IMG/VR virus record: IMGVR_UViG_3300046513_000343
Span: 1-64,000 of that record
DNA length: 64,000 bases
Reading direction: 5' to 3' (one strand)
Source of the DNA: a virus
The translations under genes and the position numbers were made by a program. Positions 33,426 through 61,148 of the stretch are shown here, piece after piece. Positions within the stretch are counted from its first letter, which is position 1; every line of letters starts with the position of its first letter. The notes under the pieces were generated by a model. It was not told the DNA's origin, did not search any database, and worked only from the letters and a program-made list of their open reading frames with translations.

Positions 33426-33782
33426 ATGTCCTACTGCCGCTGGAGCAGCGACGACTGGCAATGCGATGTGTACGTGTACGAGGGCTGCGGCTTTGTGACG
33501 CACGTCGCGCGCAGCCGGGTCCTCGGCGCGATCCCGCCGACCCCGCCTATGCGCAACGATCCGGCGTGGCCGCGTGAATTCCTGCTGGCGCACCAGGCGC
33601 AGATGGCGTTTCTTGCGACCTGCGAGCGCACAATCATCACGCTGCCGCACGCCGGTGAGTCGTTTCACGATGACACACCGGGCGCATGCGCCGACCGGCT
33701 GGAAATGCTGCGCGCGCTGGGCTACAACGTGCCGCAGTACGCGATTGACGAACTGCGCGCGGAAGCGCTAGACGATGATTAG
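33426..33782 (+). CDS. Antisense hypothetical protein (moron-like)
   Basis: AGGAG SD; MSYCRWSSDDWQCDVYVYE...GYNVPQYAIDEL, 118 aa. Confidence 0.7.
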   Translation: MSYCRWSSDDWQCDVYVYEGCGFVTHVARSRVLGAIPPTPPMRNDPAWPREFLLAHQAQMAFLATCERTIITLPHAGESFHDDTPGACADRLEMLRALGYNVPQYAIDELRAEALDDD

Positions 33783-34286
33783 CGCCTTGCCCGTTTCGCC
33801 CAGGATCAGCACCGGAAACGCGCTTTCATAGACCGCCTGGGTGCAGCCCTCGCAGTCATCGACGGCGAAGTCATCGAACAGGATGAAGCCACCCTTGACC
33901 ATCAGCGGCGGCAGGCGTTCAAGGATCGCCTTGGTGCTCTCGTACTGGTCGGCGTCGGCATGGACGAAGCCGATTGGCGGCATCGGCACCAGCGTATCGG
34001 GGAACAGCCCCTGGATGACGGTCGCGGCCGGGATCAAGGCCTGCACCGCCTCGGCGCTGGTGTCGCCGAACTTGCCGACCGGGTTGCCGGTGTCGAGCTG
34101 GCCCTGATACGGGATGCCGGTGAAGGTGTCGTACAGGTACAAAGGGCGCCCCAGCTTGGCCAGGTGCCACGCCGAGCCGCCGCGATACACGCCCACTTCG
34201 ACAATGGCTGCGGCCGGCGCGCGGCTGGCGTAGTACATCAAGCTGTTGATGGCCAGCTGCGACAGAGCGGTATAGGGAGCGTCCAT
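33768..34286 (-). CDS. TylF/MycF/NovP-family sugar O-methyltransferase
   Basis: VEVGVYRGGS, YDTFTGIP, FVHADADQYES, GGFILFDDF. Confidence 0.85.
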   Translation of the reverse strand: MDAPYTALSQLAINSLMYYASRAPAAAIVEVGVYRGGSAWHLAKLGRPLYLYDTFTGIPYQGQLDTGNPVGKFGDTSAEAVQALIPAATVIQGLFPDTLVPMPPIGFVHADADQYESTKAILERLPPLMVKGGFILFDDFAVDDCEGCTQAVYESAFPVLILGETGKALIIV

Positions 34287-34376
34287 AGGGTCCGTTTGAT
34301 TTCACTGGAAATGCTTGTTTCAGCAAACGCTGAAACCCCTGCTTTTGGTGAAACTGGCAAGGGTTGAAATTGGGGT

Positions 34377-34458: not shown

Positions 34459-35902
34459 CTATGCGGCAGAATCCCAGCGAATGATGCGCGATTGCGCAGC
34501 GGCGGTCTGAACCAGGCCGAAACCGCCCATGTAGTACCAGGCCACACCACGCTGGCGACCGTAATCGCCAGGGATCATGCCGCGCATTTCCTCGGGGATC
34601 ACGATGCCCTCGGCGACGGTGTCGTTGCCGAAGAAGTAGGCCCAGTTCGACAGGCCGTTGGTGAACGCGGCCTTGGCGATGTTGGTCTGCTCGACGAAGC
34701 GCACCGACTCGTAGCGGCCGATCTCGCCGTTCAAGATCATCTGGAAACCGGCGTCCACGTACTGGTGGACAGCTTCCAGGTCGTTCTTCAACTGGCGGAA
34801 CGTGGTCGGGTGGGCCAGGCTGATGTAGTCATCCTGGATATAGGGCGGGACGTTGCGCTCTTTCATCACGTCCACGATGGCCTTCACGTGATTTTTGCCC
34901 AAACTCACATTATTCGTCGCCGTCGCAGTGCCGTTGGTGGTCAACGTCACGGCGGAAGTCGAGGTGCCGCCGGTCGGCACCACGCGCAGCGGGGTCAGGC
35001 GGAACTGCGCCTCGGCCATGATGTCGAAGGCCTTCTTGGCGTCGTTCTTCAAGACCTTGCTGATGATCTCCTTGACCGGCTGTTCCGAGAGGTCGTCCAG
35101 CTTGGAGCTGTACGGCACGCTGTTGCCGGCCTCGGTGATGGTCATGGTGCCCTGGGTAATTACGAAGTTCGTGGTTGGCATCGCGGTGCCTTCCGTGAGC
35201 GTCGTTCCTTGGGTCGCTACATCGCTGTAAACGTTCCACACACTGTTACTTGATAACCTGTCGCTGCATTGACAGGCGGGTGGTCATTTCTGCCACCTCA
35301 CGGCGTTCATTGGGTTATATGCCGTGGTCGGACTATCGCATCCCCGTTGCCGGGGCCAACTCGCTTAGTCTCTCAGGCTGCACAGCCTTGCGGCTTGCTT
35401 GCCCCTTCTTTCCCGCTGCCGGGGGTTGAAGTCAATCAGAGTCGGTTTTAATTCCACCAGGTCGTTAATGGAATGCGTCACCCATGCCTTTACCCTGGAC
35501 AGCTGCGTCCTTGATATCAGCAAATTGACGGAATTTTGTGAGTGGCTGGACGGCCATACGCAAAACTTTTGAGAGGTTGGGGGACCACATGTATCCCATT
35601 TTGTTCAGCAGAGATCGCTACACGCTGCTCGCCGGTTCCCACTCCGGCTGCTTGCCATTTCTGGCAAGATCAGACTATTTCATCGTCCCTTGGGACGTTG
35701 CGCACTTCGGGGCGCTTGCCCCTACTCCCACCTACGGGATAGTCGTTGAACCTTCCGGCTTGCGCCGGCTTGGCTGCAGATTGTCTGCGCCTTAACGCGG
35801 TCAGAGTTCCCTGCAATTCACGCAATTATCAGTCGCCGATTACTCGGTGACGGGGCAGTGTTATTTACCCAGGCTGTTGGTGAGCCAGACTTGACCTGCC
35901 AT
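34459..35902 (-). CDS. Major capsid protein (N4-gp56-like), spliced: join(35867..35902, 35468..35596, 34459..35238), 314 aa
   Basis: AGGAG SD then MAGQVWLTNSLG | GYMWSPNLSKVLRMAVQPLTKFRQFADIKDAAVQGKGMGDAFH | WNVYSDVATQG...GEIGRYESVRFVEQ...GDYGRQRGVAWY. Exons are 36, 129 and 780 nt, all multiples of 3. Directly follows the scaffold gene. Confidence 0.9.
35239..35467 (-). ncRNA. Group I intron 2 in the capsid gene (229 nt, no ORF)
   Basis: P1 UUCCAU/GUGGAA with U.G at the splice site; terminal G (AACAGUGUG); P3 CCGACUC/GAGUUGG; P7 GAGACUA/UAGUC; P8 CCCCG-GCAA-CGGGG; several P9 hairpins. Confidence 0.9.
35597..35866 (-). ncRNA. Group I intron 1 in the capsid gene (270 nt, no ORF, with P7.1/P7.2, IA-like)
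   Basis: 5' splice after U (GGGU/GCCC P1 with U.G pair); terminal G (AACAAAAUG); P AAUUGCAGGGAA, Q AAUCUGCAGC, R GUUCAACGACUA, S UGAAAUAGUC; P3 UUGCGU/GCGCAA; P8 CGUCCC/GGGACG; P9 CUUGCCA/UGGCAAG. Confidence 0.9.
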
Positions 35903-35937: not shown

Positions 35938-36999
35938 CTATCCCCCGGCGCGCGCCGCCTTCATCGCCGCGATCACATCGCTGGGATTTTCGGGCTGCTG
36001 CTCGGTGGTGGTGGTTTTGGTGTTGACCGAGGCGACGTTGTCGATCGATCGTTTTTGCTCCAGCTTTGCCGTTCGTGCGGAGGACGTGGTTGGGGCAGGT
36101 TCGGCGGGACGGCCCGCTGCGGTACTCGCGGCCCAGCCGAATTTGTTGGCCATGTCCTTGCTGACGGTATCCAGTGCAGTGAAGAAGTCACTGCCGTTCT
36201 GCTCGCGCAGGCGGTGGATTTTGGTCAGGGCCAGGGCCTCCATATCGGGGTCGCTGTACAGCTCGGGATAGTCGCGCTGGTTCTGCGCTAATGCACTCTC
36301 GACTGCGAACTTCTGCTGCACTTGCTGCGTGACGGCGTTGGCGATCTGGTCAATGTCGAGGGTGGGCGCAGCCGCCGTGGCGGGTTGCTGCCGTCCTCCA
36401 ATGACCTTCTGCAGCGCGGTCAGCGCGTTTTCCTCGTCGCCCTCAAACAGGGCCTTGAGAAATTCCTTGCCTGACTCGTCCACCGGCGGGGTGTCGGTCG
36501 TGGCGGGGTTCGGGGTGGCGGTGGTTGCCGCCTGCTGGGCGCGCAGCTGGGCTTCCTGCTGTTCCAGCAACAGGCGCTGGGCCTGCGCTTCCTGGGCTTC
36601 GCGCAACAGGCGCGTGGCCTCGTTCAGGCGCTTGTCGGCGCTGCTGTTCTTCTGGTACTGGCGCACCACTTCATCGAGCGGCACATCGGTCTCGACGCCG
36701 TCGACCTTGACGCGCACCGTGGCCGGCGCCTCGGTCACGGCGGCGGGCGGGTCTGCCAGCTGCGCGGCCAGTTGCTCGGCCGGCGCCGGTGCTGGTTCAG
36801 GCTCGGCGGGTTCATCGACCGGCAGTTCGTAGCCGTTCGATTCGGCCATCTGCTGCTGGTGGCGGGTTTCCAGCGCTTCCATGGCCAGCTCGCGGGGCGA
36901 CTTCGGGACTTCTGCTGCTTCGGTGGTGGTGGGCGTTGCCGGGGTGGCTGGGGTAGCGGGTGCGGCGGTGTCTTGCACGTCCGTTGGGATAGCGCTCAT
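35938..36999 (-). CDS. Capsid scaffolding protein
   Basis: AGGAG SD; VRVKVDGVETDVPLDEVVRQYQK..SADKRL motif, coiled coil, basic C-terminal helix; lies directly before the capsid gene. Confidence 0.8.
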   Translation of the reverse strand: MSAIPTDVQDTAAPATPATPATPTTTEAAEVPKSPRELAMEALETRHQQQMAESNGYELPVDEPAEPEPAPAPAEQLAAQLADPPAAVTEAPATVRVKVDGVETDVPLDEVVRQYQKNSSADKRLNEATRLLREAQEAQAQRLLLEQQEAQLRAQQAATTATPNPATTDTPPVDESGKEFLKALFEGDEENALTALQKVIGGRQQPATAAAPTLDIDQIANAVTQQVQQKFAVESALAQNQRDYPELYSDPDMEALALTKIHRLREQNGSDFFTALDTVSKDMANKFGWAASTAAGRPAEPAPTTSSARTAKLEQKRSIDNVASVNTKTTTTEQQPENPSDVIAAMKAARAGG

Positions 37000-37090
37000 G
37001 TACGGCTCCTGAAATGCAAAAGCCCGCATGGCCAGAGCGGCGTGCGGGCAAATGTTGAAAAGCAGCGCCGCGTATGGCAGCGCTGCGGTT

Positions 37091-37573
37091 TTACTGCGGC
37101 GTGACTGGCTCGTCCAGGCAGGGCGCGCCGACCTTGCGGTAGGCGGCGCGCACGGCCTTGTTCTCGCACAGCACCTGCTTGGCCGCCGCCGTGTCGCCCA
37201 GCGAGCGCAGTTCGCGCGCGTTGAGGCGGTTGACGCATTCGACATCGTTCCAGGTGCCGCCCAGCGAGACGCCGAAGGCGATGCCCGACAGGCCGGCGCT
37301 GGTCGAGCCCATGCAGGTTTCCGACAGCGTGGTGGTCAGGGAGGGCGGCGCGATGCCCGGCGCCGAGCGCACCGTCAGCTTGTCTGGCGTGGGCGCGGCG
37401 TTGTAAATCGAGGTTTGCGCGTTACCGGCGTTGGTGGCGGTGCCGGACACCGAGCCGTTGCTGCTGGCGGTGCTGCCGGACGCACTCGTGTTGCCCGACG
37501 ACTGCGCACTGGCGCTGCCGCACAGCAGCAGGCCCGCCAGACCAAGGTACAACCAGGACAGCGGGCGCGTCAT
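37091..37573 (-). CDS. Secreted/membrane-anchored protein with Cys residues
   Basis: Signal peptide ending ASA-Q; Ser/Gly-rich segment; CMGS...EC...LC..C. Confidence 0.7.
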   Translation of the reverse strand: MTRPLSWLYLGLAGLLLCGSASAQSSGNTSASGSTASSNGSVSGTATNAGNAQTSIYNAAPTPDKLTVRSAPGIAPPSLTTTLSETCMGSTSAGLSGIAFGVSLGGTWNDVECVNRLNARELRSLGDTAAAKQVLCENKAVRAAYRKVGAPCLDEPVTPQ

Positions 37574-59895: not shown

Positions 59896-60900
59896 CTACT
59901 CTACTGGAGCGCCCTCGCTGGTGCGTTTTTTTGCCTTGCCCGCCAGCCGCGCCGCCACCCACTCAGCGCTCTGTTTTTTGCCGAGCTTGGCTGCCGACAG
60001 TTTGGCGCGGTGTTCTGGCGTAAGTACCTTACCCTTGTTTGCCTTGCCCAAGTTGGCCAGGTGCTCTGCGGTTTTAACCCTGCCCTTGAGCTTCGCCGAT
60101 ATTTGCGCTCGCGTTGCCACCGAAATGACCTGCCCCTTGTGCGCTTCGGATAACTTGGCGCAGAACTCGGCGCTCATTATCATATTCTTGTTCCATGGGG
60201 TCGCCGGTGGGCTTGGCAGCTTCGGCGGTGGGGGTGGCAACATCGCCAGCTTGCGCGCACGGTTCGCCGCTTGCGTTGCGAGCCTTTTGGTGACCTGCTC
60301 TGGCGGCTGCTTCTTGCCAATTTTTGCCGCCGCAAGACGAAATCTGGTTTCAGGCGACACCGTGCGGCCTTTGGCGTTTGAATTGCCCATGCCAGCTTCG
60401 CTCAACCGCTTTTTCGTTTCATCCGAGTGGTGGGACAGTTGCTCTTTTTTTGCCTTGGAGATTGCCGCCCCACGCTCTGGCGGATAGGGGCCACGCTTCT
60501 TGCCTTTTTGCCCGGCACCGATATTTGCCCGCCACTCTGCTGACATCACGCGGCCCGTTAAGGACTTGCTGATATTGGCACGATGTTCTGGTGAATTTGT
60601 CATGCCTAACCGGCTACCGGCCGTCGCCGTCATGTTGTACCCCGATGCCCAGGCATCGAAACCGTCAATCGCGCGCTGCTCGTAGAACAGCAAGTCCTTC
60701 TTCTCGCAGCAGAACAAGATCACAAACACGAATGTATCCTTGCCGTACTTGATCCACGCTCGTTGCAGCTTGCTGCTGTGGTGGCAATTAGTATTGAGTT
60801 CGTGCCTATGCTTTATGAACCGCTTAGAGAAATGCACAGCGCTACCGACATACCGCTTGCCGTTGCTGGTATTAATGATTGCGTACACACCGGATTTCAT
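59896..60900 (-). CDS. Free-standing GIY-YIG homing endonuclease with NUMOD3 repeats
   Basis: GAGGTG SD; MKSGVYAIINTSNGKRYVGS...R...H...LQRAW.KYG...E...GYN, then many (H/M)S.E.RAK(L/I)S..KG repeats; lower GC than neighbours. Confidence 0.9.
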   Translation of the reverse strand: MKSGVYAIINTSNGKRYVGSAVHFSKRFIKHRHELNTNCHHSSKLQRAWIKYGKDTFVFVILFCCEKKDLLFYEQRAIDGFDAWASGYNMTATAGSRLGMTNSPEHRANISKSLTGRVMSAEWRANIGAGQKGKKRGPYPPERGAAISKAKKEQLSHHSDETKKRLSEAGMGNSNAKGRTVSPETRFRLAAAKIGKKQPPEQVTKRLATQAANRARKLAMLPPPPPKLPSPPATPWNKNMIMSAEFCAKLSEAHKGQVISVATRAQISAKLKGRVKTAEHLANLGKANKGKVLTPEHRAKLSAAKLGKKQSAEWVAARLAGKAKKRTSEGAPVE

Positions 60901-60943
60901 TTTCACCTCGCGGTCGATGTGTACATTGTATTGCCTGGATTCC

Positions 60944-60970
60944 AAAAAAAAAGCCCGCGCGAGGCGGGCT
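60944..60970 (-). terminator. Rho-independent terminator
   Basis: AGCCCGC-CTCGC-GCGGGCT followed by a long T tract. Confidence 0.75.
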
Positions 60971-60995
60971 GAACGTGGTGAACGTGGTGTCAGTC

Positions 60996-61148
60996 TCAGC
61001 GCGAGCCTGGCGGGGAATTGTTGGGCAGCAGCCACCAGCCGAGCTGGCGGCGAATTTCCACCGGCGTGCCCGGTGGCGTGGGCGCTTTAGCGCGCTCCTG
61101 CAGGTAGTGGCGGACAGCTTCTTTCGTCGGCGGGATCACGGTCGGCAT
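60996..61148 (-). CDS. 50-aa small protein (below ORF-track cutoff)
   Basis: AGGAGG SD; MPTVIPPTKEAVRHYLQERAKAPTPPGTPVEIRRQLGWWLLPNNSPPGSR. Confidence 0.65.
   Translation of the reverse strand: MPTVIPPTKEAVRHYLQERAKAPTPPGTPVEIRRQLGWWLLPNNSPPGSR

Follow-up and report, generated by a model that had tools for sequence, protein, structure and literature searches.

A phage capsid gene with two ORF-less group I introns, probably from different families and received as one block

The major capsid gene of a phage from soil or rhizosphere is interrupted by two group I introns that lie only 129 nt apart and carry no open reading frame (ORF) of their own. Very probably, the two belong to different families, were inserted separately in some ancestor, and were received by the present lineage as a single block. 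The window analysed is the first 64,000 nucleotides of IMG/VR record IMGVR_UViG_3300046513_000343, and the capsid gene is present as a single copy in this 77.8-kb record, which lacks ~20% of the genome.

Capsid gene structure and splice junctions

The gene is located on the minus strand and consists of three exons (Table 1). Its product is an HK97-like major capsid protein whose closest relatives from isolates are capsid proteins of Vibrio and E. coli phages (50-54% identity). An AGGAG ribosome-binding site is found 8 nt upstream of the ATG start codon at 35902. Removal of both introns leaves a frame of 12, 43 and 259 codons that encodes a protein of 314 residues. Both insertions are in phase 0, after codons 12 (site 1) and 55 (site 2), and both follow a U and end in G.

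Table 1. Coordinates of the capsid exons, introns and associated features in the window.
Feature	Position	Strand	Description
Capsid exon 1	35867..35902	-	12 codons, MAGQVWLTNSLG; colinear with intron-free homologues
Intron 1	35597..35866	-	270 nt, ORF-less group I, IA2-type build
P7.1 hairpin, intron 1	35726..35739	-	UCCC-GUAGGU-GGGA; 4 pairs, 100% paired in 10 introns, 2 compensatory
P7.2 hairpin, intron 1	35709..35722	-	GGGGC-AAGC-GCCCC; 5 pairs, 100% paired in 10 introns, 2 compensatory
Capsid exon 2	35468..35596	-	43 codons, GC3 0.53
Intron 2	35239..35467	-	229 nt, compact ORF-less group I; exact excision relative to L005
Capsid exon 3	34459..35238	-	259 codons and stop
Candidate co-conversion tract	35149..35882	-	32 substitutions relative to L005, spliced CDS +20 to +254

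Junctions were mapped by tblastn searches with the three exon pieces against 52 viral-contig and 39 metagenome loci that contain homologues. In approximately 80 intron-free homologues, the three pieces adjoin without a gap. The contig L005 encodes an identical capsid protein and has neither intron, and therefore both junctions are known to the base. A preliminary description of this DNA, made from the sequence alone, had placed introns of 270 and 229 nt at a spacing of 129 nt, and these lengths and coordinates are exact when compared with L005 and the intron-free homologues.

The sequences flanking each junction are those expected for group I splicing. At the end of exon 1, CCUGGGU pairs with GCCCC, the guide of intron 1, to form P1 (GGGU with GCCC), and the UUCCAU that ends exon 2 forms P1 with GUGGAA, the guide of intron 2. 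Immediately 3ˊ of the 5ˊ splice site of intron 1 there is an in-frame stop (AAA UAA), and intron 2 begins with an in-frame UAA and ends in G. Presumably, both introns self-splice from the capsid transcript, given that the gene is essential and single copy and is exactly colinear with intron-free alleles. A check for RNA sequencing runs that contain this region listed none.

Group I introns splice by a guanosine-initiated two-step reaction. According to the model we propose, the late transcript would be made whole, and each ribozyme would fold on its own and use its own guide (GCCCC for CCUGGGU/ and GUGGAA for UUCCAU/, where the slash marks the splice site). Both introns would then be removed by the two-step reaction to yield the mRNA for the 314-residue capsid protein. 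Ribosomes would be kept off the unspliced RNA by the stop codon near the 5ˊ end of each intron, and the different guides would favour retention of exon 2 over its skipping.

Architecture of the two ribozymes

Intron 1 is readily recognized by the group I covariance model RF00028, which matches the region 35876-35651 over the full model with 75.9 bits (E 1.7e-17), above the gathering threshold of 50 bits. Its helices comprise P1, P2, the P3-P8 core, P7.1, P7.2, P9, P9.1 and P9.2, followed by the terminal G. AGUAAU forms the loop of the P2 hairpin, the P4/P6 sequence elements are of the usual kind, and the P2 and P9.2 stems vary compensatorily among the window and contigs L008 and L023. Between P7 and P3ˊ, the RF00028 alignment places a 33-nt insert that contains both of the hairpins quoted in the preliminary description.

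Support for this region comes from a P7-to-P7ˊ alignment that takes in the L008 intron, a paralogue in L023, the middle intron of phage Twort, the T4 nrdD intron, and introns from phages of Xanthomonas, Ralstonia, E. coli, Pectobacterium and Pseudomonas. Over 10 related introns, 100% of cells are paired in P7, P7.1, P7.2 and P8, with compensatory changes in each helix. In total, 10 of 18 pairs exhibit a compensatory change, and slid controls are only 29-54% paired. Relatives detectable by blastn reside in DNA polymerase genes of Ralstonia, Xanthomonas and Pectobacterium phages, in a terminase gene of an E. coli phage, and beside a tape-measure gene of a Pseudomonas phage. Thus, the earlier reading of an intron with P2, P/Q elements and two extra hairpins between P7 and P3ˊ is upheld by both the RF00028 alignment and covariation. 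The P7.1/P7.2 pair is the distinguishing characteristic of subgroup IA, and its presence suggests that intron 1 is of the IA2 (phage) type, as judged by architecture rather than by subgroup models. The label 'IA-like' given previously is retained for the P7.1/P7.2 layout, which is that of the Twort and T4 nrdD introns, and the contrast between an IA and a non-IA intron is to be read as one of architecture only.

Intron 2 has a very different build. RF00028 yields no match to it even at E≤10 in a search of a 1.2-kb stretch. There is no P2, and only the six unpaired bases UUAAAA lie between P1 and P3, which is formed by CCGACUC with GAGUUGG. By eye, the core continues with a 4-bp P4, a short P5, P6 and P8 stems that are both capped by a GCAA loop, and a P7 composed of GAGACU with AGUCC. 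Only AAGC separates P7 from P3ˊ. The 3ˊ part includes P9, P9.1 and P9.2, followed by the conserved tail AAGUAACAG and the terminal G; P9.1 and P9.2 were assigned by eye only and are outside the formal pair counts given below, and MAFFT misaligns such length-variable hairpins.

This intron is a member of a large family, with more than 119 viral contigs carrying an exact 17-nt J8/7-P7ˊ pattern. From these we assembled an alignment (A1) of 43 non-redundant ORF-less members. RNAalifold recovers P3, P4, P5, P6, P8 and P9 from A1 unaided, with compensatory changes at 21 of 29 pairs. When the P7 pseudoknot is added, 98.8% of cells are paired across the 43 members and 22 of 34 pairs are compensatory, compared to approximately 45% paired cells for slid controls. 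The outer P7 pair is A-U in 38 sequences and G-C in five, the window being among the five. P8 is invariant; because the search pattern fixed the 3ˊ columns of P8 and P7, invariance at these positions carries no weight. Covariation supports the predicted full group I core of intron 2, including the P3/P7 pseudoknot. None of the 43 members has P2, P7.1 or P7.2, and 3-4 nt separate P7 from P3ˊ in the family; intron 2 thus lacks the P7.1/P7.2 hairpins of subgroup IA. The preliminary description of intron 2 as a compact ribozyme with no P2, ~3 nt between P7 and P3ˊ, and a minimal P4-P6 domain agrees with the AAGC spacer, the 4-bp P4 and the 43-member alignment.

The covariance model R1, which was built on A1, scores intron 2 of the window at 134.9 bits, although the window sequence is part of the training set. 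RF00028 does not match any of approximately 10 other copies from the family at E≤0.01. Annotation that relies on RF00028 would miss intron 2 and its large family, and would then call the capsid genes as fragments. Among 10 sampled copies, the downstream exon encodes a major head protein in seven cases (from three PHROG families) and a ribonucleotide reductase in one, and one blastn match of intron 2 in isolate-type records lies inside a split P22-like coat gene. The family may therefore live mainly in major capsid genes of unrelated folds. Within P22-like coat genes, members are found at at least five different sites. Members also often occur twice per gene at a distance of 350-530 nt among the >119 contigs (L055-L173), for example at L058:1933/2356, L059:3223/3752, and L172:191-407 and 902-1109.

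The two introns of the capsid gene were also compared directly. Differing architectures had been proposed for them, with high mutual identity named as a finding that would speak against the proposal. Intron 1 has P2 and P7.1/P7.2 and intron 2 has neither, and a global alignment of the two gives 52% identity, which is no more than chance. Each intron also fails the covariance model of the other, in that RF00028 does not find intron 2 and R1 gives intron 1 only 14 bits, restricted to J8/7-P9.

It is conceivable, though we consider it rather doubtful, that both introns descend from one broad phage IA2-like lineage, with intron 2 being a stripped derivative that lost P2 and P7.1/P7.2. For two Twort introns, R1 gives end-to-end alignments (22.8 and 18.1 bits, E 2e-4 to 2e-3), and it barely aligns with the T4 intron; this weak match to IA2 introns means that the two could have a distant common phage-intron ancestry. 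The introns also have in common AACGACUA, AUAGUCUGA, a P9-P9.1-P9.2 3ˊ domain and a GUAACA tail, and a 2025 survey describes phage 'IA2' introns as heterogeneous (PMC11878797). Nevertheless, overall identity does not exceed the chance level noted above, and the P4-P6 region and J3/4 are unlike. RF00028 finds intron 1 and three tandem Twort introns (63.6-100.9 bits) but none of the approximately 10 intron-2-family copies, and the IA hallmark P7.1/P7.2 is missing from the entire 43-member alignment. Membership in different families is the reading we favour.

Intron occupancy among relatives and the synonymous tract

Both introns are found at the same sites in the window, in contigs L003 and L004, and in intron-spanning contigs from metagenome runs X2 and X3. 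In L003 and L004, the two introns are 97.8% and 98.7% identical to their counterparts in the window, compared to 95% for exon 2 and approximately 91% for the flanks. This high intron identity could partly stem from purifying selection on the ribozymes rather than from recent transfer. In two soil runs of another study, intron-bearing and intron-free alleles are present together, with joints exactly at the intron limits.

Other relatives show different arrangements. L008 carries intron 1 at site 1 (84% identical), and its intron-2-type intron (78% identical) is located after codon 35, at AAGUUCCGU/, which is 60 nt upstream of site 2. The guide of this intron is changed to GCGGAA, matching UUCCGU/. 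In L023, site 1 is empty and site 2 is occupied by a 754-nt intron (L023:618-1371) with a 195-codon LAGLIDADG ORF that runs through P7, P3ˊ and P8 and stops in J8/7. This intron could be an ORF-bearing version of intron 2, although only its 3ˊ two-thirds resemble intron 2 (20.9 bits with R1) and its P4-P6 region differs. A third intron (L023:2086-2355), 73% identical to intron 1, is located near codon 293 after YYLG/GFG. It has the guide of intron 1 and follows UACCUGGGU/GG, the same 9-mer as at site 1 (CCTGGGT/GG). Finally, L052, whose capsid protein is 37% identical, has a LAGLIDADG intron homologous to that of L023 at ~2194-2946, after QFVR codons and with the guide GCGCAC.

In all, five insertion sites are used in this capsid gene family, and the first 56 codons contain four of these. 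Strict co-occurrence of the two introns, which had been named as a reason to doubt independent invasions, is contradicted by L023, where site 2 is filled without site 1, and by L008, where the second intron is at another site. All alleles with intron 1 at site 1 also have a downstream intron-2-type intron, and intron 1 alone at site 1 was not found among ~85 loci or in the metagenome runs examined. An exact-pattern search of viral contigs for close relatives of intron 1 returned only the four known capsid contigs, and a metagenome scan for capsid relatives added only further intron-free alleles and one copy of L052.

Separate origins of the two introns are supported by these observations, since the ribozymes appear unrelated and their occupancy in relatives is unlinked. 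A further reading, which we offer tentatively and hold to be less probable than not, is that intron 2 represents an undescribed subgroup-level family of very small ribozymes, marked by the lack of P2 and P7.1/P7.2, by the 4-bp P4 and by a conserved AGUAACA tail, and that both intron lineages have hopped between look-alike sites within this one capsid gene. Each lineage is found at two sites with a common P1 target. Specifically, the intron-1 type follows CCUGGGU/GG both after codon 12 in the window and near codon 293 in L023, and the intron-2 type follows UUCCAU/ in the window and UUCCGU/ in L008 with a compensating change in the guide. Such hopping may have been guided by the introns' own guide sequences, as in reverse splicing. 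The target common to the alternative sites spans no more than 6-9 nt, the combined length of P1 and P10. A typical nuclease site measures 14-40 bp, and thus guide-directed integration appears to fit the short target better. The pattern could have been produced by reverse splicing, by nuclease-driven ectopic homing, or by recombination. If reverse splicing were responsible, the capsid introns would be evidence from nature that RNA can guide ectopic spread within a protein-coding gene. The relatives described here also allow this route to new sites to be tested for group I introns that lack an ORF. Direct evidence for this mode of spread was described as lacking in a 2014 review (PMC3984707).

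Homing endonucleases were also considered. As stated in the preliminary description, no endonuclease is encoded by either intron; neither contains an ORF above 51 codons when read from stop to stop, this being the longest such frame. The single-motif LAGLIDADG proteins of L023 and L052 are 36% identical to each other and are associated with different capsid sites and different guides. Their Pfam scores fall below the cut-off, and a LAGIIDGEG motif is present. Searches of the phage's own record for HNH, HNH_3 and relatives of the L023 LAGLIDADG protein gave no match. The sole homing-type nuclease found there is a free-standing, I-TevI/Seg-like ORF of 379 codons with GIY-YIG and NUMOD3 domains (59896-61035, minus strand), and nothing ties this ORF to the capsid gene.

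The composition of exon 2 bears on how the introns arrived. The preliminary description had noted that this exon is rich in A/T at third codon positions, and indeed its third-position G+C content (GC3) of 0.53 falls in the lowest 1.5% of 43-codon windows, for which the mean is 0.82. This background was taken from ORFs of the window that were selected by GC3 and are likely genuine. Exon 3 has a GC3 of 0.78 over its first 40 codons and 0.87 over the remainder, and the exon corresponding to exon 2 in intron-free relatives ranges from 0.67 to 0.98.

A comparison of the spliced window with intron-free L005 is more revealing. Their alignment extends over 4673 nt, is free of gaps and contains 92 mismatches; 32 of these are clustered within 235 nt of the capsid gene, while the rest of the ~4.7 kb is approximately 98.6% identical. 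This tract covers both intron sites (+36 and +165) and all 129 nt of exon 2 without a break, and it extends ~90 nt into exon 3, where it ends sharply. Third codon positions account for 31 of the 32 changes, and none alters the protein. Regarding direction, 19 changes are strong-to-weak and seven are weak-to-strong. Outside the tract, the 850 nt on its upstream side contain three mismatches and the 218 nt that follow it contain none; the three upstream changes, at -87 to -48, may belong to the tract as well. The 32 clustered synonymous changes are of the kind expected from co-conversion at a mobile group I intron. One continuous co-conversion tract from a donor with lower GC3, spanning both intron sites, is strongly supported by the pattern of substitutions, and the L005 comparison likewise argues strongly for the co-conversion origin of exon 2 that had been proposed earlier. 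The donor was not found among the intron-free exon 2 sequences, which are all ≤85% identical.

Alternatively, the A/T-rich third positions of exon 2 might be maintained by selection rather than imported, either to prevent pairing of a short exon with the flanking ribozymes or to provide a translation ramp. We regard this explanation as improbable. Exon 2 is indeed a short exon between two structured RNAs, and its counterparts in L003 and L004 have a similarly low GC3 of 0.56. However, the short exon between the two introns of L008 has a GC3 of ~0.87 (counted by eye), and exons located between ribozymes therefore do not generally require a low GC3. Moreover, the changes continue past exon 2 to a sharp end in exon 3, and intron-free orthologues have the higher GC3 values given above at the same N-terminal position.

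With import as the preferred reading, the remaining question is whether the introns came singly or together. Two local independent invasions of this lineage, leaving two short tracts that happen to abut, would accommodate introns from different families, as well as an L023 allele with site 2 filled and site 1 empty and an L008 allele with its intron-2-type intron elsewhere. Nonetheless, such a history seems unlikely. The substitutions continue unbroken from one end of the 129-nt exon 2 to the other, the window and L003 resemble each other more closely across the whole block than in the flanks, and the ~85 loci and the runs examined contained no allele in which intron 1 occupies site 1 by itself. 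Rather, the pair probably arrived in this lineage together as one cassette, as suggested by the one continuous synonymous tract over both sites and by introns that are ~98% identical to those of L003 between flanks that are ~91% identical. In this scenario, the two insertions would have been separate events in some ancestor. A single gene conversion would later have brought in the block, which extends from within exon 1 through intron 1, exon 2 and intron 2 to ~90 nt into exon 3. The donor, present through co-infection, would have had a lower GC3, and the conversion would have left the synonymous tract. The independent invasions proposed in the preliminary description are thus upheld as separate ancestral origins, on the evidence of unrelated introns and of the L023 and L008 alleles, while the data for this lineage point to joint arrival.

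Precedents and the capsid neighbourhood

Several known systems resemble parts of this arrangement. The Twort orf142 gene is a late structural gene with three group I introns and exon skipping (Landthaler & Shub 1999, as cited in PMC10136302), and its introns 2 and 3 have been assigned to IA2 (PMC10136302). We take three tandem RF00028 matches in Twort at 16.6-17.5 kb to be orf142, with the middle match (97 bits) being orf142-I2. As in the capsid gene, several ORF-less group I introns are close together in a late virion gene with short exons between them, and the middle Twort intron matches intron 1 in having P7.1, an AGUAG linker, P7.2 and the P7/P8 core. In contrast, introns 2 and 3 of Twort are close copies of a single IA2 ribozyme, whereas the two capsid introns appear unrelated and differ in their guides. 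In Twort the middle exon measures 23 nt, compared to 129 nt in the capsid gene, for which splicing is deduced from sequence.

A pair of architecturally different introns is present in the 23S rRNA of Coxiella burnetii, where IB2 and IA3 introns flank a 34-nt exon (Hicks et al. 2011, as cited in PMC10136302). This pair likewise places different group I introns next to each other with a short exon between, although in a bacterial rRNA gene for which exon skipping has been demonstrated, rather than in a protein-coding gene of a phage. We know of no record of co-conversion for the Coxiella introns. The T4 nrdD (sunY) intron, annotated in its record as a 'group 1A intron', and other phage IA2 introns have the same P7-P7.1-P7.2-P3ˊ-P8-P7ˊ layout as intron 1. 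The T4 intron carries the I-TevII gene, whereas intron 1 is ORF-less and resides in a capsid gene.

Capsid genes themselves are established targets, with introns reported for mycobacteriophage LittleE (PMC3706429) and lactococcal phage Tuc2009 (as cited in PMC3706429), and for crAss-like phages, in which a single capsid gene can be interrupted as many as four times (PMC7886860). These cases match ours in their capsid target, in variable presence among close relatives, and in the LAGLIDADG genes of some copies. They differ in that they were found mostly via endonuclease ORFs or as a single case, whereas both introns here are ORF-less and one is from a large family invisible to RF00028. Co-conversion at homing is likewise already known (PMC3984707). 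Multi-intron late genes, paired introns of different subgroups, capsid introns and co-conversion all have precedents. What is new is a clean example of a known habit of phage introns and a pointer to a large family outside the reach of Rfam. In addition, the comparison of the window with L005 presents a homing or gene-conversion event at single-base resolution, in which the tract limits, the direction of base changes and the probable joint transfer of two unrelated introns are visible.

Three further observations concern the surroundings of the capsid gene. Directly downstream is a gene for a TylF-family O-methyltransferase (33768-34301, minus strand; PF05711, E 2.5e-13). Upstream, in the position of a scaffold gene, is a 465-codon frame (35938-37335, minus strand) that is rich in Ala, Pro, Thr and Glu and for which no Pfam match was found. 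In each of the four metagenome runs examined, summed contig depth exhibits a ~10- to 50-fold spike in the 54-nt bin 35942-35995, which lies a short distance upstream of the capsid start. Short 31-nt high-depth contigs map to this bin, and the spike likely reflects a repeat or a widely shared short sequence.
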